64,000 bases of DNA from assembly GCA_963769245.1 (NCBI GenBank), contig CAVYKU010000002.1:165823-229822 (forward strand). Direction: 5' to 3'. Source of the DNA: an uncultured Phycisphaerales bacterium (lineage in GTDB: Bacteria; Planctomycetota; Phycisphaerae; Sedimentisphaerales; Anaerobacaceae). Under the pieces are notes generated by a model. The model did no database searches and was not told the origin of the DNA. It saw only the letters and a list, made by a program, of their open reading frames with translations. A program made the position numbers and the translations under genes. Positions 725-50,423 of this stretch are shown one piece after another. The first letter of the stretch is position 1. Every line of letters begins with the position of its first letter.

Positions 725-2608
725 ATGGCTGGTGAAGTAAAAGATATTTTGAAAAACAGGGTTAACGGCAAACACTTTGACCGGTTAATTGCGGTTGACC
801 ACCCTAAGATGCACCATTTCATCGCAGATGCTATCGAGCTGACAAATCCGGCTTCTGTCTATGTCTGCACCGACTCGCCGGAGGACGTAGCGCATATCCG
901 CACCCTTGCCATAAAAAACGGCGAGGAAATCCCCCTCGACATCAAGGGCCACACCTGCCATTTCGACGGTATTAACGACCAGGGACGCGATACCTTCAGC
1001 ACAAGATACCTCCTGCCCGCCGGCTCATCGCTCGGCGAATCGCTCAAATCCGTTGAAAAACAGGCAGGCACCAAAGAAATCCGCGACCTCCTCAAAAACA
1101 TAATGGCCGGCAGGGAAATGATTATTTGCTTCTGGACGCTGGGACCAACCGGCTCCGATTTCACCATCCCCTGTCTTCAGATTACCGACTCGCCATACGT
1201 CGTTCACAGCGAATCGCTTCTCTATCGCCCCGGCTACGAGCAGTTCAAAAAACTCGGTGAAAACCATGGCTTTTTCAGATTTCTCCACTCCGAAGGCGAA
1301 CTCGAAAACGGCATCAGCAAAAACTATAATCTTCGCCGCGTTTATATCGACCTCGAAGACGAATTGGTTTACTCCGTAAACACCCAGTACGGCGGCAACA
1401 CAATGGGCCTCAAAAAACTCGCCCTGCGACTCGCCATCCAGAAGGCCTCGCGAGAGGGCTGGCTCGCGGAACACATGTTCGTTATGGGCGCACACGGACC
1501 GAAAGGGCGAGTTACTTATTTCACCGGCGCCTTCCCCTCCGCCTGCGGCAAGACCTCAACCTCGATGCTCCCTGGCCAAACAATCGTCGGCGATGATATT
1601 GCCTATTTCCGCAAAAAAGACGGCCAAATCCGTGCCGTAAACGTCGAAAAAGGCATCTTCGGCATCATCCAGGACGTCAGCGAAAATGACGACCCCGTCA
1701 TTTATAAAGTCCTCACAAGCCCGACAGAGGTCATTTTCTCCAACGTCCTGCTCGACGCGAATAAAAAACCCTACTGGCTCGGCATGGGTTGTGAAATACC
1801 GCCCGAAGGAACCAATTTCTCCGGCGCATGGTTCAACGGTAAATCCGATGACCAGGGCAATCCCATTCCGCCCGCTCACAAAAACGCCCGCTATACCCTC
1901 AGCATCCCCGACCTCGACAACTGCGACCCTGCCCTCAATGACCCCAACGGTGTCCCCATCGGCGGCATGGTTTACGGTGGACGCGACAGCGACACATGGA
2001 ATCCCGTTGAGCAGGCCTTCGACTGGAACGAAGGAATCATCCTGAAAGGCGCGGCTCTCGAATCGGAAACAACTGCAGCGACTCTTGGCAAGCAGGGTGT
2101 CAGAACATTCAACCTTATGTCGAATCTCGACTTCGTTTCGATACCGCTCGGCAAATATGTCCAAATCAATCTCGACTTCGCCAAAGGCGTCAAAAACCCG
2201 CCCCTCATATTCTCCGTCAATTACTTTCTCCGCGGAAAAGACGGCAAATACCTCAATACTATGGCAGACAAGCTCGTCTGGATTCTCTGGGCGGAGCTTC
2301 GTGTCAATGGCGATGTCGATGCAATCAAAACGCCGTCCGGCTTCATACCAATTTATGATGACTTAGCCCGGCTGTTCAGAGAGCATCTCAAAACCCAGTT
2401 CACAAAAGACGATTACGAAAAACAGTTCACGATTCGTGTCCCGGAAAACCTCGCCAAACTCGACCGCGTCGAGAATATTTATCGCCAGAAAGTTCCCGAT
2501 ACTCCCAAAATTCTGTTAGATACCTTCGCCGAAGCCAGAAAACGCTTCAAATCCGCCGCCGAACAGTATGGGGATTATATTTCCCCCTTCGAGCTGCTTG
2601 GTAGGTAG
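725..2608 (+). CDS. pckG: phosphoenolpyruvate carboxykinase (GTP)
   Basis: 627 aa. Carries the FPSACGKTS kinase-1a P-loop typical of GTP-PEPCK, and the length and overall pattern fit the family. Confidence 0.95.
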   Translation: MAGEVKDILKNRVNGKHFDRLIAVDHPKMHHFIADAIELTNPASVYVCTDSPEDVAHIRTLAIKNGEEIPLDIKGHTCHFDGINDQGRDTFSTRYLLPAGSSLGESLKSVEKQAGTKEIRDLLKNIMAGREMIICFWTLGPTGSDFTIPCLQITDSPYVVHSESLLYRPGYEQFKKLGENHGFFRFLHSEGELENGISKNYNLRRVYIDLEDELVYSVNTQYGGNTMGLKKLALRLAIQKASREGWLAEHMFVMGAHGPKGRVTYFTGAFPSACGKTSTSMLPGQTIVGDDIAYFRKKDGQIRAVNVEKGIFGIIQDVSENDDPVIYKVLTSPTEVIFSNVLLDANKKPYWLGMGCEIPPEGTNFSGAWFNGKSDDQGNPIPPAHKNARYTLSIPDLDNCDPALNDPNGVPIGGMVYGGRDSDTWNPVEQAFDWNEGIILKGAALESETTAATLGKQGVRTFNLMSNLDFVSIPLGKYVQINLDFAKGVKNPPLIFSVNYFLRGKDGKYLNTMADKLVWILWAELRVNGDVDAIKTPSGFIPIYDDLARLFREHLKTQFTKDDYEKQFTIRVPENLAKLDRVENIYRQKVPDTPKILLDTFAEARKRFKSAAEQYGDYISPFELLGR

Positions 2609-2877: not shown

Positions 2878-2906
2878 TTGACTTTGTCTCTTAAGCAACG
2901 TAGAAT
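2878..2906 (+). promoter_or_regulatory. putative sigma-70 type promoter (TTGACT-17 nt-TAGAAT) upstream of the sigma-54 activator gene
   Basis: TTGACT at 2878-2883, a 17-nt spacer, then TAGAAT at 2901-2906. It lies about 125 nt upstream of the ORF start. Confidence 0.4.
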
Positions 2907-3033: not shown

Positions 3034-4104
3034 GTGATAGTTCGCGCAAGGTGCCTTCTGGCGCAAAAAGAGTTGAGCTTTCAGAACGGAAACGGCAAGC
3101 ACGGACAGCAGGATTCTGCGTCTGCGCAGTCGTTTTATACTCGCACGCATAACCATTTTCTCGGCAATTCCGCTGCGTTCAACTCCGTAATGGAGATTAT
3201 CAGGGCTATTGCCGCTCGTGAATGTCCGGTTATTATTACCGGCGAAACAGGCGTCGGCAAGGAAATGGTCGCCCGCCAGATTCACGTCTCAGGCAGCCGC
3301 GCCGACCGCGTTTTTGTCCCCGTCGATTGTACCACCCTTACAGGCCAGTTATTCGAGAGCCAGTTATTCGGCCATGTCAAAGGCGCATTCACAAGCGCTG
3401 TTGACAGCACGCTCGGTTTCTTCAGGGCGGCAGACGGCGGCACGATTTTCCTCGATGAAATAAGCGAAATACCCCTCGAGCTTCAGGCAAAGCTCCTCCG
3501 CGTCCTCCAGGAACGCCGTGTAACGCCCCTCGGCTCCGCTATGTCGTATCCCGTTGATGTCCGCGTCCTGTGCGCGACCTGCAAGGATTTGTATGGTATG
3601 GTCAAAAAGGGCACATTCCGCTCAGACCTTTATTACCGCCTCGACGTTGTTCGCCTTGAGGTGCCTCCGCTTCGTCATCGCAGGGAAGACATCCTCGATT
3701 TGGCCGAATACTTCCTAAAAAACCAGTCGGCCTTCTACAATGAGCCGCCCAAGACATTCAGTGAATCCGTCAAACGCCTCCTGCTTAATTACGCCTGGCC
3801 CGGCAACGTCCGCGAGCTTGCCAACGCCATCGAGCGTGCTTACGTTCTCACCGAGGGCCCCGAAATTCAGCCCGCCGTAATGCCTTTCGAAATCATAATA
3901 GCTGATTCGCCTTCTTATCCCAAAGACCAGTTGCCGACCCTCGATGAAGTAAAACGCAGGGTCATTACCCAGACCATCGAATACACCAAAGGCCGAAAAA
4001 TCGCCGCCGCAAGAATTCTCGGCATCGATCGCCGCCAACTCAATCGCCTTATGGAAAAATTCGGCATCCCTGCTGCCGAAGCCGACGAAAACACAAAACA
4101 GTAA
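3034..4104 (+). CDS. sigma-54-dependent transcriptional activator (bEBP): AAA+ domain plus C-terminal Fis-type HTH, with no N-terminal sensory/receiver domain
   Basis: Walker A GETGVGKE, GAFTGA-type loop (GHVKGAFTSA) and ESQLFGH are present, and the C-terminal ...AAARILGIDRRQLNRLMEKFGI is an HTH. Only about 45 aa precede the AAA+ core. The start (GTG at 3034) is uncertain. Confidence 0.85.
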   Translation: MIVRARCLLAQKELSFQNGNGKHGQQDSASAQSFYTRTHNHFLGNSAAFNSVMEIIRAIAARECPVIITGETGVGKEMVARQIHVSGSRADRVFVPVDCTTLTGQLFESQLFGHVKGAFTSAVDSTLGFFRAADGGTIFLDEISEIPLELQAKLLRVLQERRVTPLGSAMSYPVDVRVLCATCKDLYGMVKKGTFRSDLYYRLDVVRLEVPPLRHRREDILDLAEYFLKNQSAFYNEPPKTFSESVKRLLLNYAWPGNVRELANAIERAYVLTEGPEIQPAVMPFEIIIADSPSYPKDQLPTLDEVKRRVITQTIEYTKGRKIAAARILGIDRRQLNRLMEKFGIPAAEADENTKQ

Positions 4105-4176: not shown

Positions 4177-4273
4177 TGGTCACCTGTGACTAAAGTGGTC
4201 ATATCATCGAAGTCCCATTCTGACGCAAGGACTTACGACAATAATTATCGCTTATCTATGACCAATATGGTCA
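4177..4273. promoter_or_regulatory. candidate enhancer (UAS) region with TGGTCA/TGACCA half-sites
   Basis: TGGTCACCTGTGAC at 4177-4190 contains the inverted repeat GTCAC-CT-GTGAC. TGGTCA recurs at 4196-4201, and a perfect palindrome TGACCA-ATA-TGGTCA sits at 4259-4273. The region lies 100-195 bp upstream of the -24/-12 element, which is the usual position for bEBP sites. Confidence 0.3.
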
Positions 4274-4371
4274 GCAATATTTTTGTACCCGTTTATTGCT
4301 GTCGAAAAATCAATTAACGTAACCCCTTTGCTGTAAACGACTTAAAAAAATCTATTTTTCGCGGCACGGTC

Positions 4372-4387
4372 TGGCACGCCATTCGCT
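4372..4387 (+). promoter_or_regulatory. putative sigma-54 (-24/-12) promoter
   Basis: TGGCACGccatTCGCT compared with the consensus TGGCACG-N4-TTGCW. The GG and GC are correctly spaced. It lies about 70 nt upstream of the 4458 ORF and directly downstream of a bEBP gene. Confidence 0.55.
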
Positions 4388-4457
4388 CTATATGTATAGC
4401 GAAGAAAAAAATAAAGCATCCGTAGGCAAATAGGCCGCAGAGTATTTAGGAACGTAG

Positions 4458-4883
4458 ATGGTTGTTCTTGTTCAGGCGACAGTTTTAACAGTGGGTTTAA
4501 ACGGCAGAAATGAAGTGTTAAGAGAACTGCCGATAAGATTGATAAAAATGCAGTCGGGTCTTGAGGCTGCTCGTTCTTTGAAAAATGAAAAGGTGAACAG
4601 CGTAATCAGCAGATGGGATTTGGATGATATGCCCGATGGAAGATTTCTCAAATCTTTCAAAGCGGCTAAACCCTATATCCCCACGATTGCCCTGATAAAG
4701 TCAGGCAGCAAAGTTCAGGAAATCGCTGCCAGGTCTTTGGGCGTCTCCGCGGTCCTTGCTGAGGATGCAACCGACAATGTCTTAAGAGACACGGTTGTCA
4801 ATCTGCTCGGTATCCATGGTGATGTCGCCATCAAGGCAATATATTCTGCTGGTAATGTTGAGGAGCTAATGAGAGAAGGCTGA
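4458..4883 (+). CDS. stand-alone receiver-like (pseudo-receiver) domain protein
   Basis: 141 aa. Aligned by eye to CheY, VISRWDLDDMPDGRFLKSFK...IPTIALIKSG...GVSAVLAED resembles VISDWNMPNMDGLELLK...PVLMVTA...GASGYVVKP. The phospho-acceptor Asp position is Arg, the acidic pocket is LN, and the conserved Lys is Glu. An AGGAAC RBS-like sequence precedes the ATG. Confidence 0.55.
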   Translation: MVVLVQATVLTVGLNGRNEVLRELPIRLIKMQSGLEAARSLKNEKVNSVISRWDLDDMPDGRFLKSFKAAKPYIPTIALIKSGSKVQEIAARSLGVSAVLAEDATDNVLRDTVVNLLGIHGDVAIKAIYSAGNVEELMREG

Positions 4884-4969
4884 TTCCGATGGCTTATCCG
4901 GCTGCGGCTTGGCGGCTTCGCCGAGACCGGTCGGGATATCGAAAAGCCATCATCTTTCTGAGAGCACGC

Positions 4970-5725
4970 ACGGCCTGCGCCGTGATTAAATAGCTCATGA
5001 GGAGTTTTCTCCCCCCAAGCTGGGTTTGTTACCGTGAAAAGATTAAAAAAATCTAAAGCGAGGTCAATAAACCCGGCACGAATATCGACATCCTGTCCCG
5101 TATGGAACGGGGTGATTAAGATAACAAATTCTACACATATTCTCTCTCTCTCCCTTCTTCGCTGGATTTGATACTCTCTCTCTTCTCAAATCCAGCTCGC
5201 AACCATACGCGGTCAATCGGCCGCGACAAGGGTAATAAACTCATTCTCTCTCTCCCTTCTTCGCTGGGTTTCGACTCTCTTCGCAAACCCAGCTCAAATA
5301 CAACCGCGGCTTAGCCGTGATTAGTATAAAAGCTCATTCTCTCTCCCCTTCTTCGCTGGGTTTCGACTCTCTTCGCAAACCCAGCTCAAATACAACCGCG
5401 GCTTGGCCGCGATTAGTATAAAAGCTCATTCTCTCTCCCCTTCTTCGCTGGATTTGAAACTCTCTTCGCAAATCCAGCTCAAATACAACCGCGGCTTGGC
5501 CGCGATTAGTATAAAAGCTCATTCTCTCTCCCCTTCTTCGCTGGATTTGAAACTCTCTTCGCAAATCCAGCAGTTTAAAAGCGCCCCGTAGCATTGAGAA
5601 CGGCGGGACGATAGTAATACGGTAGCGGAGGCGGGTAAAGTAGTGGAGGCGGGTAAGTTAGTTCTCCCTTTTCTTCGCTGGGTTACAGCTTGTTTCCAAA
5701 AAACAGGCGAACCCAGCATGGCTGT
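4970..5725 (+). repeat. tandem array of 92-104 nt structured units (5 good units plus degenerate copies at each end); candidate ncRNA array
   Basis: Units lie at 5137-5240, 5241-5333, 5334-5425, 5426-5518 and 5519-~5571, with degenerate copies at ~4970-5040 and 5661-5717. Each unit has a CU-rich tract, hairpin A (GCTGGRTTT...AAAYCCAGC) and hairpin B (CGCGGC-TTG-GCCGCG). Strand assignment is tentative. Confidence 0.85.
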
Positions 5726-5775
5726 TCGCATAATCGTGTGTGCGATTGTGCTTTAAGATAACAGTGTGAAAGTCG

Positions 5776-5821
5776 CTGGGCCGGTCAGGTTAAAAAACCT
5801 GTTCGGCCCAGTAAGTTTTTA
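5776..5821 (+). terminator. intrinsic terminator
   Basis: CTGGGCCGGTCAGGTT-aaaa-AACCTGTTCGGCCCAG forms a near-perfect long hairpin followed by TAAGTTTTT. Confidence 0.7.
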
Positions 5822-5929
5822 CCGCGGAAATATCGGGCCTGGAATCAAGCCGGCTCGCGCAAGTAATGCCCGCGTCAGGAAAGACACGGGGAATATGTTT
5901 GGCAGTTTGTAGCAAAAAGGAGTGTTTGA

Positions 5930-6058
5930 ATGTCAAAGATTTATGTAGTATTCAAAGATGTGTTATTGTTCCCCCTGTTGCTGTCTATTGGCTTTTTGGC
6001 AGCCGTCATATTGATGAATTCACCGCTTGTTAGGGCACTGTGGATGGAAGGTATTTAA
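5930..6058 (+). CDS. small hydrophobic protein (42 aa), hypothetical
   Basis: AAGGAG lies 8 nt upstream of ATG at 5930. The product is MSKIYVVFKDVLLFPLLLSIGFLAAVILMNSPLVRALWMEGI, with one predicted TM helix. It is below the ORF-track size cutoff. Confidence 0.35.
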   Translation: MSKIYVVFKDVLLFPLLLSIGFLAAVILMNSPLVRALWMEGI

Positions 6059-6114
6059 CATTCGTCATTGCTGTTAATCCGCTATATCCTGCGTCCAATC
6101 TCCGAACCCCCAAA

Positions 6115-6134
6115 AGGGTGAAAGACGGGATTCG
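6115..6134 (-). repeat. 20-nt direct duplicate of the tRNA-His 3' end (att-like scar)
   Basis: AGGGTGAAAGACGGGATTCG at 6115-6134 is identical to 6266-6285, which covers the T-loop to the 3' end of tRNA-His plus 2 nt. Confidence 0.8.
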
Positions 6135-6214
6135 CTTCGCGGCTCCCCTAAGGGGTGTCGAATCCTGTTCTGCCGCTTCGCGTCAGGCGGGTTCTCATCC
6201 CTGGTTTGAACTCC

Positions 6215-6250
6215 AAAAAAATAGACCCCAGATAACGACGTTCTGGGGCC
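6215..6250 (-). terminator. intrinsic terminator downstream of tRNA-His
   Basis: The minus strand reads GGCCCCAGA-acgtcgtta-TCTGGGGTC followed by TATTTTTTTGG. Confidence 0.65.
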
Positions 6251-6267
6251 TTCGCGTTGCTACGGAG

Positions 6268-6342
6268 GGTGAAAGACGGGATTCGAACCCGCGACCCTCG
6301 GAACCACAATCCGATGCTCTATCCAACTGAGCTACTCTCACC
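6268..6342 (-). tRNA. tRNA-His (anticodon GTG), with G-1 encoded and no encoded CCA
   Basis: The minus strand reads GGTGAGAGTAGCTCAGTTGGATAGAGCATCGGATTGTGGTTCCGAGGGTCGCGGGTTCGAATCCCGTCTTTCACC. It folds by hand into a cloverleaf with anticodon loop TTGTGGT and an 8-bp acceptor stem including G-1:C73. Confidence 0.9.
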
Positions 6343-6355
6343 GCTACAGTTCGTT

Positions 6356-6384
6356 ATTTTACACTCATTGTCGATTATATGCAA
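6356..6384 (-). promoter_or_regulatory. putative sigma-70 promoter for tRNA-His (TTGCAT-17 nt-TAAAAT)
   Basis: On the minus strand TTGCAT lies at 6384-6379 and TAAAAT at 6361-6356, with a 17-nt spacer. This is about 14 nt upstream of the tRNA 5' end. Confidence 0.45.
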
Positions 6385-6448
6385 GTTCCGCAGTTTTTTA
6401 ACACTAAGGCACAAAGAAAAAACTTAGTGTCTTGGTGGCAAAAATATT

Positions 6449-6649
6449 TTACCGATGGCCGAGTAATCTCGCAGGCAAAAACAAAATGGCCTTAATCAGT
6501 GCAAGAAACGCCTCCGCGGCAATACCCACAACACGAAACGGAATCGACAAGAGCCACACAAACGGCCACAAAATAAGCGCTAACAACGCTATAGGCCAGC
6601 ACAGCACTAACAAAATCGCCCACAACAGTAATATGAGTAATACCTTCAC
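6449..6649 (-). CDS. small integral membrane protein, hypothetical
   Basis: 66 aa and almost entirely hydrophobic (MKVLLILLLWAILLVLCWPIALLALILWPFVWLL...), which suggests two TM helices. Confidence 0.4.
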   Translation of the reverse strand: MKVLLILLLWAILLVLCWPIALLALILWPFVWLLSIPFRVVGIAAEAFLALIKAILFLPARLLGHR

Positions 6650-6892
6650 CGTCTGTCTCCTTAAATTGACCTGCCCGGTATTATAGCGTGAGCCGATGAT
6701 GAAAACCAGCGGATTTGATTGGCCGCAAAAATGTACAAAAAGTTTAGACGCAGATTAACGCAGATTTACGCTGTTTTTTCTGTACGCTGAACGCTGTCCG
6801 CTGTCCAGCAACCCCTTTTATTTTATGGGGGCATCTTATACAATCACTGAAAATGATTTCATCAGTCCGTATTTTTCTTTTTGAGGTTATCT

Positions 6893-7323: not shown

Positions 7324-7800
7324 TCACTGGCTGCGGGGCTTATCTGCGGTGCTATGCGGCTGGTTAGCATCAACTTTTGGCCAAATGACCTTTGAAGAAT
7401 GATTGTTGTAATTGGCGGTGAACTTGAAATTTCCATCGGTGGTTTTCTGCACCTGCAAATTAGTATGGTCCATCCCGCCGAGCCATACGTATTCAACGTA
7501 ATCAGAAGAAATATCAATTCTTAAAATTTCCAATTTTCTCAATTCAGGCGGGATGGGCTTTTTATCTGTCCCGTAGACACCAATAACCCCCGATTTTGGG
7601 TCATATTCCTGCAGGTATTTTTTGGTTCGTTCAATCCAGACGGGGATATCTTTGGCGGTGATAGAATCCATATATTTACAGCCGTATTCCTGGGCTACTT
7701 TCATACGCCAAAACAGGGGGACAGCAAGGCAAATCGGCCACACTATATAATAACCAACTGCGCCGAGAACAAGGATTATCAAAACATGTTTAAATTTCAT
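7324..7800 (-). CDS. membrane-anchored hypothetical protein
   Basis: 158 aa with an N-terminal TM/signal anchor (MKFKHVLIILVLGAVGYYIVWPICLAVPLFW). I recognised no family. Confidence 0.6.
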   Translation of the reverse strand: MKFKHVLIILVLGAVGYYIVWPICLAVPLFWRMKVAQEYGCKYMDSITAKDIPVWIERTKKYLQEYDPKSGVIGVYGTDKKPIPPELRKLEILRIDISSDYVEYVWLGGMDHTNLQVQKTTDGNFKFTANYNNHSSKVIWPKVDANQPHSTADKPRSQ

Positions 7801-24334: not shown

Positions 24335-25669
24335 TTAAATTTTTTTACAGAGGAGGTCGTAGTTTTTGAAGGAGGTTACTTTGGCGTTAATAAGGGAGCC
24401 GGGGGAGGTATGGCAATTGCGGATTATGCAGATGGGGTCGATATCGGGTGCCTGGCCGAAGAAGCGGGCTTTGGCGGTGTGATTTTTGTCGATGGTGTCA
24501 ACGAGGCAGGTTAGTGTGGCGCCTATTCGGGATTTGTTTTTATCGAAGACGATTTTCTGCTGGGCGAGCATAAGTTTTTCGATGCGAAGTTTTTTAACGT
24601 TATCGGGAACCTGGTGCGGGAGGTTGGCGGCGGTGGTTCCCTGTTCGGGGTAGAAGGGGAAGCAGCCGAGGTTGTCGAATCGTGCCCATTTGAGAAAAGC
24701 GAGAAGTTCGTTGAAGTGAGCATCTGTTTCGCCGGGGAAGCCGACGATGAAGGTGGTGCGGAGGACGCAGCCGGGGATTTTGGTTCGGAGGGTTTCGATT
24801 AGCCGGCGGATTTTGTCTTTGGAATGTGGGCGGCGCATTGCTTTTAGGATTTGGGGGTTGATGTGCTGGAGAGGGACATCGAAATACGGGAGGATTTTAT
24901 CGCAGGCTCCGACGGTTTCGATGAGGCGTTCGGTAATTCCCGTGGGGTAGAGATAAAGAAGTCGAATCCAGCGAAGTCGCGGGATTTTGGCGAGGTCGGT
25001 AAGCAGTTTCGGCAGGGCGTTTTGGATATCGAGGTCGCGGCCATAGGCGGTGATGTCCTGAGCGATGATATTGAGTTCGACTGCGCCTGAGGCGACGAGC
25101 TCTTTAGCTTCTGTGAGGATGAGCTGTTTAGGTTTGCTGCGTGCTTTACCTCTGATAGCCGGGATGGTGCAGAAGGAGCATTTTTTGTTGCAGCCCTCAC
25201 TGATGCGGAGGTATGCCCAGTGCGGTGGGGTGATACGGAGCCGGGTTCGGTCGTCGTATGGGATTTTGAGGGGGGCGGTTACGGCGGATATGGGTTTATC
25301 AGATGTGAAGGTCGATTGAATTATTTTGACGATGTTGTCTCGCGATTCGAGGCCGAGGACGGCGTCTATACCAGCGGTTTCATTGAGGATATTTTTGCCC
25401 ATTCGCTGGGCAAGGCAGCCGGCGACGATGACTTTCCGGATATGGCCCTTTTGTTTTCGTTTGAGGGCGTGATTGATGGCGTCGAGGGCTTCTGCTTTGG
25501 CGGGTGCGATGAAGCCGCAGGTATTGATGATGACGACGGCGGCGTTGTCGGGGTCATGGGTGATGCAGAAGCCGGCCTGGGCGATTTGTGCGAGCATACG
25601 TTCGCTATCGACCATATTTTTGGGACAGCCGAGGGATATAAAGCCAACGGTAATTTTCTTAGTATTCAT
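24335..25669 (-). CDS. rimO: ribosomal protein S12 methylthiotransferase RimO
   Basis: Carries the UPF0004 N-domain (GFISLGCPKNMVDSE), the radical-SAM CxxxCxxC (EGCNKKCSFCTIP) and a C-terminal TRAM-like domain. 444 aa. Confidence 0.9.
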   Translation of the reverse strand: MNTKKITVGFISLGCPKNMVDSERMLAQIAQAGFCITHDPDNAAVVIINTCGFIAPAKAEALDAINHALKRKQKGHIRKVIVAGCLAQRMGKNILNETAGIDAVLGLESRDNIVKIIQSTFTSDKPISAVTAPLKIPYDDRTRLRITPPHWAYLRISEGCNKKCSFCTIPAIRGKARSKPKQLILTEAKELVASGAVELNIIAQDITAYGRDLDIQNALPKLLTDLAKIPRLRWIRLLYLYPTGITERLIETVGACDKILPYFDVPLQHINPQILKAMRRPHSKDKIRRLIETLRTKIPGCVLRTTFIVGFPGETDAHFNELLAFLKWARFDNLGCFPFYPEQGTTAANLPHQVPDNVKKLRIEKLMLAQQKIVFDKNKSRIGATLTCLVDTIDKNHTAKARFFGQAPDIDPICIIRNCHTSPGSLINAKVTSFKNYDLLCKKI

Positions 25670-26223: not shown

Positions 26224-26230
26224 CAGTTGT

Positions 26231-26321
26231 TCACTAGGGGTGGCCTGTTGGATGGCCTGAGAGCAAACCCTTTGAACCTGACAGGACAGCCGAAAGAGGC
26301 GAGGCCTGCGTAGGGAAGTGA
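26231..26321 (+). promoter_or_regulatory. TPP (THI-box) riboswitch aptamer
   Basis: GGGGTGGCC...GGCCTGAGAGCAAACCCTTTGAACCTGACAGG...GCCTGCGTAGGGAAG matches the conserved CUGAGA, ACCCUUUGAACCUGA and GCGUAGGGAA cores. P1 pairs TCACT with AGTGA. It lies upstream of thiC. Confidence 0.85.
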
Positions 26322-26354
26322 TAGAAGACAGTCGAAGATGTTGATATGAGATTG

Positions 26355-50033: not shown

Positions 50034-50423
50034 ATGCAGGACACGTCCGAGCGGAGAAGAGAGCCAAGATTAAGATACCACTGGCCTGTGTGGTTTGCAG
50101 AAAATTTTGCCGGTTTACTTTCACAAGGACAAATGGTCGATGTTTCCAGCGGAGGAGCGGCCTTTACCTGTTATGCGGACAAGGGCTGCCCTTATCCGGG
50201 CCAGAACATAACAACCCGTTTCAGCGTGCCGTATTATCACGAGGATGACCGTTTCGATATCAGTGATTTTGTTCGCGCGGGCCAGGTTTGCCGGATTGAC
50301 CAAATTGGCAATGGTCTCAGTCGCGTGGCGATAAAATTTTATGAACCACTTCCGTTCAAGCCGTGTAAATTAGCGAATTCACAGTCAAGCGATGAAGAGA
50401 TTCTTGAACCCGCGATGGTTTAA
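50034..50423 (+). CDS. PilZ domain protein (putative c-di-GMP binding)
   Basis: The RREPRLRY (RxxxR) and DVSSGGAAF (D/NxSxxG) motifs are present. Confidence 0.75.

Follow-up and report, generated by a model that had tools for sequence, protein, structure and literature searches.

What does a head-to-tail array of ~93-nt repeats do behind a small gene of a peat planctomycete, and does it act as RNA, as DNA or as coding sequence? The array lies at positions 5000-5821 (+ strand) of a 64,000-nucleotide (nt) stretch of contig CAVYKU010000002.1 (assembly GCA_963769245.1, an uncultured Phycisphaerales bacterium), and the whole of this stretch is called the window below. A first-pass annotation, made from the letters of the window alone, had described the array as structured RNA, either a set of sibling small RNAs (sRNAs) or an RNA sponge. 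For comparison, species-representative genomes were scanned with the 141-amino-acid (aa) pseudo-receiver protein encoded upstream of the array, which gave 37 loci whose best matched segments are 59-99% identical, and metagenomes were scanned with a 23-nt seed pattern, which gave 65 further loci. The results suggest that region 5000-5821 represents a new family of non-coding RNA on the + strand, its hairpins being recognised by covariation and its transcription being predicted. The CU-rich seed repeated in the array appears to have one specific, co-evolving partner, which lay beyond the sight of the first-pass annotation, namely the mRNA 5' end of a gene for a sigma-54 enhancer-binding protein (EBP). 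The reading that we favour, and consider fairly probable, is that this activator drives a multi-seed sRNA array which pairs with the leader of the activator's own mRNA.

The repeat array

Tandem Repeats Finder detected the repeat at 5143-5571, with a period of 93 nt, 4.5 copies, 89% matches and a score of 586, and a separate repeat search of the window returned the identical register, in agreement with the tandem array of 92-104-nt units described at first pass. The core sequence TTCGCTGGRTTT has eight matches in the window at ≤1 mismatch, compared with ~1.1 expected, and none of 100 shuffles reached eight. Six of these matches lie in the array, all on the + strand, and the remaining two lie far off at 24964 and 30521. 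Weak antisense matches to the core at 50048-50386 fall inside a coding gene with 2/12 mismatches and were discarded as chance. A covariance model of our own, built from the units, recognised seven units within 5000-5761, all on the + strand, and these match the unit boundaries and both degenerate copies drawn at first pass. The array comprises five near-identical tandem units, a degenerate first unit (unit 0) and a divergent last unit. A CRISPR array was rejected, because the units abut head to tail without unique spacers.

Each tandem unit consists, in order, of the seed AUUCUCUCUCCCCUUCUUCG, hairpin A, the linker CGAAUACAA, hairpin B and the linker GAUAA..UAUAAAA; hairpin B is trailed by AUUAGUAUAAAAG and has no U-run. 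Unit 1 (5135-5237, + strand, covariance-model match 79.4 bits, fold z-score -6.7) carries the seed AUUCUCUCUCUCUCCCUUCUUCG at 5139-5161, a hairpin A of the GGAUUU/AAAUCC type and the hairpin B CGCGGUC/GGCCGCG. Unit 2 (5239-5331, + strand, 95.6 bits) has the seed, the hairpin A GGGUUU/AAACCC and a hairpin B with a G·U pair (CGCGGC/GCCGUG). In unit 3 (5332-5423, + strand, 101 bits, z-score -5.6) the seed AUUCUCUCUCCCCUUCUUCG is unpaired in the minimum-free-energy fold and is followed by the hairpin A GGGUUU/AAACCC and hairpin B, while unit 4 (5424-5516, + strand, 97.5 bits) combines the seed with the hairpin A GGAUUU/AAAUCC and hairpin B. Unit 5 (5517-5627, + strand, 70 bits) has the seed, hairpin A, a variant hairpin B (GCGCCCCGU...ACGGCGGGAC), which also closes the tandem part in relatives, and the linker GAUAGUAAUACGG. 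The compensatory change in hairpin A that had been noticed at first pass (GGGTTT/AAACCC in units 2 and 3 versus GGATTT/AAATCC in units 1, 4 and 5) is present, as are the hairpin B CGCGGC-TTG-GCCGCG and the G·U variant GCCGTG of unit 2.

Unit 0 (5000-5131, + strand, 29.7 bits) is preceded by a hairpin-B-like stem at 4970-4986 and combines a conserved GAGGAG-UUUU-CUCCCC mini-hairpin with a long hairpin A behind it. The same motif recurs once in locus L030 and twice in locus L083. Unit 0 (window 4994-5030) also carries a strongly conserved GCUCA(U/C)GAGGAGUUUUCUCCCCCCAAGCUGGG, found again in L030 at 4551-4590 and in L083 at 6780-6815 and 7733-7768. The GGAG of unit 0 can pair with CUCC over the UUUU loop, so that the pyrimidine motif is self-sequestered.

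Behind unit 5 lie two purine repeats of 18 nt, GUAG(C/U)GGAGGCGGGUAA, at 5622-5657 (+ strand; Tandem Repeats Finder period 18, 1.9 copies). Relatives have 1-4 copies of such GGAGG-type repeats, and L030 has a different purine repeat, CGGAGAAAACUUUAGGGU, in the same place in 3-6 copies. Purine tandem repeats containing GGAG always precede the final unit, and in L030 (4912-5028, 7177-7225 and 8034-8098) they stand before every unit that fronts a gene for a PEP-CTERM protein. These repeats might be seed masks, decoys or binders of the 30S subunit. A small open reading frame (ORF) made of the GGAGG repeats was ruled out by the 20-nt periods and stop codons seen in relatives (periods 18, 20 and 21 nt).

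The final unit (5657-5821, + strand; covariance-model match 5657-5761) comprises the variant seed GUUCUCCCUUUUCUUCG, a long hairpin A, hairpin C (GCAUAAUCG/CGAUUGUGC), which covaries in L013, and the GC hairpin D. Its seed occurs in the variants CCCUUUUCUUCG or CCCAUUUCUUCG. Only this last unit closes with a strong GC hairpin. Hairpin D is terminator-like, with a stem at 5776-5811 and a U-run at 5816-5820. The very strong terminator placed at 5776-5821 at first pass is borne out as to its hairpin and T-run; a simple terminator scan did not call it, four bases lying between stem and T-run, and the U-run is not kept in relatives. In both unit 0 and the final unit, adjoining GGAG motifs could mask the units' own seeds. 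The layout of unit 0, tandem units, purine repeats and final unit is conserved among relatives.

RNA structure, strand and coding potential

Folds of single units leave the first ~23 nt, i.e. the CU tract, unpaired and form both hairpins, with z-scores of -4.9 to -6.7 relative to shuffles. Stem covariation was tested on an alignment of 49 units, in which hairpin A has 9 bp and hairpin B 7 bp. For the two hairpins together, 96.1% of the cells are paired, versus 87.2% in column shuffles and 25-47% with slid partners, and two-sided changes occur in 80 cells versus 19.9 expected (0/500 shuffles); compensatory change is found in all seven pairs of hairpin B. Both hairpins are thus kept and covarying in related genomes. 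Summed over pair types, the stems of this alignment contain ~48 G·U but only 5 A·C pairs, which identifies the + strand as the functional RNA. An RNA on the minus strand is ruled out by the same counts, though that strand folds well too.

The length of the units varies between 86 and 136 nt across loci (including 86, 89, 91, 92, 97, 100, 106 and 115 nt), and the loop of hairpin A ranges from ~8 to >40 nt. Since the period varies and is mostly no multiple of three, the array is not coding. ORFs do run through the repeats on both strands, as a repeat-encoded protein would have it, yet such a protein is contradicted by these periods and we give it practically no credence. The view of the first-pass annotation that the units are structured RNA of the + strand rather than coding sequence is therefore upheld by covariation, by the G·U bias and by the periods. 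Rfam release 15 was run on the window, where only two tRNAs and a TPP (thiamine pyrophosphate) riboswitch reach gathering scores, and even with E relaxed to 10, positions 4200-6400 gave no match over the array, consistent with the earlier impression that the array belongs to no known RNA family.

A co-evolving partner of the seed in the activator leader

Partners of the seed were sought by a duplex scan of the whole window on both strands, with the array itself excluded. The best partner is 2915-2933 (UUGAAGAAGAAAUGGGAGAGAUU; -22.9 kcal/mol; fraction of windows as good 9.5e-5), which lies on the + strand ~2.2 kb upstream of the array and ~100 nt upstream of the EBP start codon. This site consists of GAAGAAG (2915-2921), a bulge AAAU (2922-2925) and GGGAGAGA (2926-2933), has an ATG at 2924 inside it and is complementary to the CU seed of every unit. 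CUUCUUC pairs with GAAGAAG over 7 bp and CUCUCUCCC with GGGAGAGAG over 8-9 bp, leaving the four target bases AAAU as a bulge. A promoter scan found a sigma-70-type promoter of EBP, TTGACT-17-TAGAAT, at 2878-2906 (+ strand, 10/12 matches). Transcription of EBP would then start at ~2912-2915, which makes the target the predicted 5' end of the EBP mRNA. In related loci, a -10-like hexamer (TAGAAT, TAAAAT or TAAACT) stands 8-12 nt upstream of the purine tract.

The target is kept at the same position in all 36 loci that hold the EBP upstream region, and it changes together with the seed. The type of the window has the target GAAGAAG/GGGAGAGAG and the seed CUCUCUCCC/CUUCUUC; a second clade (L029, L043, L055, L081 and L093) has the target GGAGAAG/GGAGAGA and the seed UCUCUCC-U-CUUCUCC; and L030 has the target GGAGAAGG-U-AAGAGAGAU and the seed AUCUCUCUU/CCUUCUCU. 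In an all-against-all matrix, own seed-target pairs are stronger than cross-clade pairs by 3-10 kcal/mol (for example, -27.5 to -30.7 versus -20.1, and -25.6 versus -20.4 to -23.4 kcal/mol). The seed of the final unit is a contiguous, perfect 14-15-nt complement of GAAGAAAUGGGAGAG in L010, L012, L014, L080, L089 and L101. Over 530 kb of sense strand from 80 loci, 36 sites reach ≤-22.5 kcal/mol, and 30 of the 36 are the EBP leader, among them leaders of EBP genes that are 4.8-5.6 kb away from their array. An unpaired conserved seed and compensatory change with a target are the marks of a trans-acting base-pairing sRNA, and on these comparisons the array appears to have both.

The same data bear on a reading in which the CU/purine motif is the DNA site of one protein, for example EBP itself, used as an operator at its own promoter and as a distal enhancer cluster, with the co-variation reflecting drifting specificity. 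Both places carry the same sequence, inverted relative to each other, and from clade to clade the two change together, as they also would at a shared protein site; the target, too, overlaps the predicted +1 of the EBP promoter, a typical operator position. The motif is non-palindromic, however, whereas a good palindrome stands at canonical enhancer distance (4259-4273). Tandem seeds match the target over a 4-nt bulge and final units match it without one, which is tolerable for RNA but not for DNA, and the loop of hairpin A varies widely in length. Among 67 distinct seed-target pairs, 70 wobble (G·U-type) pairs stand against 6 C/A mismatches, and this excess, although inflated by RNAduplex, which picks its own register, favours RNA pairing over a shared DNA site. 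Moreover, the motif is fused to covarying hairpins with a strand-specific G·U bias, so the units are RNA regardless. We therefore hold a DNA site to be very improbable and return to pairing between seed and leader.

The second half of the target is also the 5' arm (GGGAGAGAUUGCCC) of leader hairpin 1 (2926-2965, + strand), of which the 3' arm is GGGCAUUCUCACC. RNAalifold on 23 leaders gave 12 pairs for this hairpin, five of them with two-sided changes, and the consensus GGGAGAG.GUGCCC paired with GGGUA.UUCUCGCC. As the target includes the 5' arm, binding of the seed must open hairpin 1, and in the modelled fold GAAGAAG would be left free beside it as a toehold. An alternative pairing of the 3' arm with the EBP ribosome-binding region was not conserved on inspection. 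The AUG at 2924 opens an upstream ORF of 37 codons, and its stop TGA (3035-3037) overlaps the EBP start region. This ORF is unlikely to be the cause of the target's conservation: in distant relatives the AUG is replaced by GUG, GUA or AAG and 2-nt indels follow its position, so a conserved peptide is probably not encoded.

The predicted sigma-54 transcription unit

On the + strand, the order is phosphoenolpyruvate (PEP) carboxykinase, EBP, sigma-54 promoter, 141-aa gene, array, hairpin D and a 42-aa ORF. EBP (3030/3034-4104, + strand; Pfam Sigma54_activat 5.9e-62, HTH_8) has an AAA+ domain and a Fis-type helix-turn-helix and is without a receiver domain. Its matches to NCBIfam were all below cutoff; against the PrsR model TIGR02915 it scores 285 bits with a cutoff of 502.6, which places it outside the PrsR/PrsK family. 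The conserved start is ATG 3030 (MSDSSRKVPSGAKELSF...), and the ORF listed for the window begins at GTG 3034. At 3065-3069, the gene has a run of five A, versus four in the near-identical L001, and the extra A puts ATG 3030 out of frame; more distant relatives differ around this position but keep the N-terminus in frame. The extra A stems either from an assembly error in the homopolymer or from a genuine frameshift, which would disable the activator in this strain.

The sigma-54-type element TGGCACGccatTCGC (-24 GG, -12 GC) reported at 4372 at first pass is present at 4372-4386 (+ strand) as a predicted promoter by sequence match. Of the 33 loci examined, 31 have TGGCAC-N5-T(T/C)(C/T)GC 58-127 nt before the pseudo-receiver gene; it stands at -186 in L016 and at -450 in L033, with two units between promoter and gene. 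A -24/-12 promoter in all loci examined and an adjacent EBP gene are what a sigma-54-dependent regulatory RNA would show. About 113 nt upstream of the promoter lies a perfect palindrome, TGACCAATATGGTCA (4259-4273, no strand assigned), a plausible candidate for the enhancer (upstream activating sequence) of EBP; L083 has similar GACC..GGTC palindromes upstream of its sigma-54 promoter. A second inverted repeat, CAGCAATA...TATTGCTG, follows the palindrome at 4272-4302.

The 141-aa pseudo-receiver protein (4458-4883, + strand) matches Pfam Response_reg at E=0.0065, below cutoff, and its near-N-terminal acidic pocket residues, as read from the sequence, are replaced. All of its 752 homologues are in Sedimentisphaerales-type metagenome-assembled genomes (MAGs), and the protein marks the source of the window as a MAG of Sedimentisphaerales (Phycisphaerae, Planctomycetota). 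The homologue in L001 (contig JBEKHA010000002.1, 98205-106627) is 99% identical to it. The AlphaFold model (pLDDT 51.5) was too poor to warrant a fold search. A protein-level action of the pseudo-receiver on EBP, which has no receiver, is possible.

No sigma-70 or sigma-54 consensus is conserved before the units, and the stretch where a per-unit -35 box would fall covaries as a stem. Sibling-sRNA array, the term chosen at first pass, is a fair description in that the units are non-coding, structured and not dispersed, and it fails in that the copies do not have their own promoter and terminator. In position and strand, downstream of an ORF, the array would fit an sRNA derived from a 3' untranslated region (CpxQ/SroC type); in some relatives units also lie 5' of that ORF. 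The array is most likely the 3' part of a sigma-54 transcript that starts at 4372 and has the pseudo-receiver ORF first. The earlier suggestion that the array belongs to the sigma-54 unit agrees with the conservation of the promoter in the loci examined and with the units between promoter and gene in some relatives.

Distribution, synteny and copy number

The array is conserved in ~100 Sedimentisphaerales/Phycisphaerae loci. About 30 genome loci, and all metagenome loci with sufficient flank, have it 230-300 nt behind the pseudo-receiver gene and on the strand of that gene. In a clade of 63-69% identity, units flank the pseudo-receiver gene on both sides, and since units thus also lie 5' of the gene, as in L033, they travel with the transcription unit and not with a fixed side of the ORF. 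The covariance model of 49 units gave 174 and 268 matches in the genome and metagenome loci (~670 kb, 102 loci). All significant matches are on the + strand and belong to arrays, except that in L030 some fall between neighbouring PEP-CTERM genes. In the window, its matches are confined to 5000-5761. No off-operon copies were found in the 64-kb window or in the ~670 kb of related loci, this search not having extended to whole genomes. Copy number ranges from 1 to 6 in 62 complete arrays, counted as units containing the core. Fifteen of the 65 metagenome contigs begin or end within the array (L038, L041, L042, L046, L051, L058, L062, L064, L075, L077, L079, L085, L090, L092 and L096), which makes the array a systematic breakpoint in these MAG and metagenome assemblies.

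Copy numbers that differ between strains and contigs that break in the array might point to a selfish or non-functional tandem repeat, such as a minisatellite or an element of the REP/BIME (repetitive extragenic palindrome/bacterial interspersed mosaic element) kind. The comparative data contradict this: synteny is strict and single-stranded in ~100 loci over 59-99% identity of the neighbouring protein, the stems covary and no copies lie elsewhere in the window. A scatter of units in both orientations, the pattern named at first pass as typical of REP/BIME elements, was likewise not seen in the window and related loci, where the matches keep to the operon and to one strand. A selfish repeat, like the repeat-encoded protein above, can hardly be credited.

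Association with PEP-CTERM genes

Fourteen of the 37 genome loci have genes for PEP-CTERM proteins, with domain scores above cutoff, downstream of the array, and these genes are likely outputs of the module. The first-pass annotation had taken the CU tract for a generic anti-Shine-Dalgarno sequence. This was examined by the pairing energy of the seed with 240 start regions from the window and the related loci. PEP-CTERM genes have unusually strong Shine-Dalgarno sequences compared with other genes (p=1e-7), and the seed pairs with their start regions no better than with those of other genes (p=0.34), so the generic role is not sustained. The top seed matches among the start regions of the window looked arbitrary.

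Purine-rich repeats of 45 nt (e.g. GAGCGAAGAAGGA) and GAAGAAGG-AUG start regions were observed upstream of PEP-CTERM genes in L011 (6723-6861), in L014 (7025-7114 and 7240-7270) and, ~2.7 kb past the pseudo-receiver gene, in L049 and L060. With as many as 11 contiguous nt of complementarity to the seed, these repeats and start regions are a possible second class of targets.

These observations also open a reading in which the units are cis-acting leader or intergenic elements that serve read-through, stability or translation of PEP-CTERM genes, by Rho loading on C-rich, G-poor tracts or by pairing of the anti-Shine-Dalgarno/Shine-Dalgarno kind with the GGAGG repeats, the complementarity to EBP being secondary. 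In L030, single units, each behind GGAG repeats, stand directly before three PEP-CTERM genes; in L013 and L015, the final unit runs directly into a PEP-CTERM gene; and the frequent position of these genes after the array, the seed-complementary purine repeats before them and the seed-masking GGAG motifs next to unit 0 and the final unit point the same way. In the window, L001 and L002, however, no PEP-CTERM gene follows the array, and the array is intact there with the highest copy numbers. Nor does seed energy single out PEP-CTERM start regions, and a cis role gives no account of 20 near-invariant nt that co-vary with a site 1.4-5.6 kb upstream. As a replacement for pairing with the EBP leader, a cis role thus seems rather unlikely to us; the two roles are not mutually exclusive and may coexist.

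Two further features of the PEP-CTERM neighbourhoods were noted. Between consecutive PEP-CTERM genes in L004, L006, L008 and L009 there is a conserved CAGGAGGAGGACUAAUU-GGCAC..GUGCC hairpin-..UUUUGAGAGGAG; this intergenic CAGGAGGAGGACUAAUU...UUUUGAGAGGAG element may be a further PEP-CTERM leader RNA motif. In L014, a NarL/LuxR-type response regulator gene (6162-6746) lies between two PEP-CTERM genes downstream of the array.

Proposed mechanism

In the mechanism that we propose for pairing between array and EBP leader, EBP would switch on the sigma-54 promoter at 4372, with the palindrome at 4259-4273 as a plausible enhancer, and the transcript would encode the pseudo-receiver and then the multi-seed RNA. 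The unpaired ~20-nt seed (AUUCUCUCUCCCCUUCUUCG) before two stable hairpins would pair with the first ~20 nt of the EBP mRNA, where GAAGAAG would serve as toehold and GGGAGAGA(G) as the 5' arm of the leader's first hairpin, and this pairing would feed back on the synthesis of the activator. Dosage would come from the several seeds, whether these are cut into sibling sRNAs or stay together in one multivalent RNA, and the module would probably tune a PEP-CTERM cell-surface or matrix programme. What the model infers is transcription, co-transcription, the leader start site, any processing and whether regulation is positive or negative. As for the sign, when the target is forced unpaired in modelled folds, the predicted accessibility of the EBP ribosome-binding region falls from 0.48 to 0.42 (mean of 29 leaders), a weak hint of a negative loop.

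Several points weigh against this mechanism. The promoters, the leader start site and co-transcription are predictions from the sequence. The next chance site in the window reaches -22.1 kcal/mol, so that the energy of the target there, -22.9 kcal/mol, is only slightly better; because this margin is small, the case for seed and target rests on conservation and co-variation. Purine-rich and pyrimidine-rich sequences pair promiscuously, and the register chosen by RNAduplex swells the wobble count. The effect on accessibility is small, and as the leaders are phylogenetically related, its p-value overstates it. Lying ~100 nt before the EBP start codon, the target is too far away for mere occlusion of the ribosome-binding site to be the mechanism. 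Hairpin B lacks a U-tail and no per-unit promoter is conserved, so release of individual sRNAs would need processing. The 1-nt insertion in EBP, if real, may mean that the feedback loop is broken in this strain. Finally, the model gives no account of the GGAGG repeats, unit 0, the conserved GAUAA linker and the role of hairpin D.

A more specific form of the model, which we put forward tentatively and think possible but doubtful, is that the whole array is one multivalent RNA with up to seven seeds, comprising a bulged tandem class and a perfect final class, that captures several EBP-mRNA 5' ends, the final seed being gated by GGAGG decoys. If true, feedback would be stoichiometric and ultrasensitive and would fix the threshold at which the PEP-CTERM surface or matrix programme of Phycisphaerae goes on or off, and the same module would double as the cis leader of individual PEP-CTERM genes in relatives.

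A repeated RNA motif may also serve to titrate a protein. CrcZ and CrcY, which depend on CbrB and sigma-54, and CsrB/RsmZ bind Hfq/Crc or CsrA through A-rich or loop-GGA motifs. The array shares with them the design of a non-coding RNA of repeated motifs that would be driven by sigma-54, as CrcZ is, and it might by analogy be a sponge for a KH, RRM or S1-type protein that binds the CU tract, or for Hfq on its A-rich linkers. Its conserved single-stranded motif is repeated between stable hairpins, its copy number is variable and its A/U-rich linkers GAUAA..UAUAAAA are conserved. But the loops carry no GGA or other known sponge motif, those of hairpin A being CU-rich and those of hairpin B variable, with GGA confined to the GGAGG repeats at 5622-5657; no known sponge family was matched; and no gene for an RNA-binding protein is conserved in the neighbourhood. 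Unlike CrcZ or CsrB, the array has an RNA partner that co-varies with its repeated motif, and compensatory changes with this partner explain the conservation of the motif without any protein. The sponge offered at first pass as one of two options is not borne out, and we judge a protein sponge improbable.

Comparison with known systems

By analogy of function, the predicted loop comes closest to Qrr/LuxO and NfeR1/NtrBC, and by architecture to tandem siblings such as LhrC. Qrr1-5 of Vibrio quorum sensing are several near-identical base-pairing sRNAs under the sigma-54 activator LuxO. The Qrr sRNAs reportedly pair with the mRNA of their own activator, giving negative feedback and dosage control. 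Base-pairing sRNAs under a sigma-54 activator and aimed at the activator's mRNA are the common ground, predicted in our case. Qrr genes, however, lie dispersed, every one with a sigma-54 promoter and a terminator of its own, whereas here up to seven seeds lie head to tail behind one promoter and ORF. The target, moreover, would be the extreme 5' end of the leader and not the ribosome-binding site, there is no similarity in sequence or structure (no Rfam match), and the host is a planctomycete. NfeR1 (alpha-r14) of rhizobia likewise repeats a pyrimidine-rich, anti-Shine-Dalgarno-like seed and takes part in double-negative feedback with NtrBC, a sigma-54-type two-component activator (PMC10746234). 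It differs in being a single gene with three loop motifs that acts at ribosome-binding sites, and its sequence is unrelated.

The resemblance to tandem siblings concerns layout. LhrC1-5 of Listeria, OmrA/B, PrrF1/2, AbcR1/2 and the Neisseria siblings (PMC5362039) have tandem copies, CU-rich single-stranded seeds and redundancy or dosage as well. The array departs from the LhrC type in that its hairpin B has no U-tail and its units no conserved promoter, so that the units must act in one transcript or be cut out of it. Copies of tandem sibling sRNAs are, as a rule, transcribed separately, each from a promoter of its own and up to a Rho-independent terminator. Four traits set the present system apart: many seeds per sigma-54 transcript behind an ORF, two seed classes, a target at the 5' end of a leader, and a different phylum.

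For PEP-CTERM genes, Haft et al. 2006 (PMC1569441) described sigma-54/PrsR control in Proteobacteria and unexplained long upstream regions elsewhere; their description of regulation involves DNA motifs and proteins only, with no RNA component. PrsK/PrsR resembles our locus in tying a sigma-54 activator to PEP-CTERM genes with long non-coding upstream regions (PMC1569441). PrsR has a receiver domain and a DNA motif restricted to Proteobacteria, whereas the EBP here is without a receiver and falls short of the PrsR model (285 versus 502 bits).

In the literature searched, we found no work on this element, none linking Sedimentisphaerales or Phycisphaerae with sRNAs, sigma-54 or PEP-CTERM, and no regulatory RNA described for either group. 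Within that literature, the array would be the first candidate regulatory RNA for them, derived from sequence alone and with a predicted promoter, activator, target and logic. The candidate would carry the Qrr/LuxO design, control of a sigma-54 activator by the sRNAs that it induces, into a distant phylum as a convergent system with a different architecture. It also offers a possible content for the long non-coding stretches next to PEP-CTERM genes outside Proteobacteria, a point that Haft et al. 2006 left open. The natural variants of seed and target are ready-made compensatory mutants. Phycisphaerae and Sedimentisphaerales are abundant in peat and sediments and almost wholly uncultured.

Neighbouring features

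The PEP carboxykinase gene occupies 725-2608 (+ strand). Just past the array, a small ORF at 5930-6058 (+ strand) encodes a hydrophobic protein of 42 aa (MSKIYVVFKDVLLFPLLL...MNSPLVRALWMEGI) behind an AAGGAG ribosome-binding site; it has no family match, and the ORF or its C-terminal coding sequence is also present in L003, L006, L009 and L014. Beyond it, on the opposite strand, lies a tRNA-His gene. The TPP riboswitch recovered by the Rfam scan is located at 26226-26333 (+ strand) and scores 54.4 bits, against a gathering score of 54.3.

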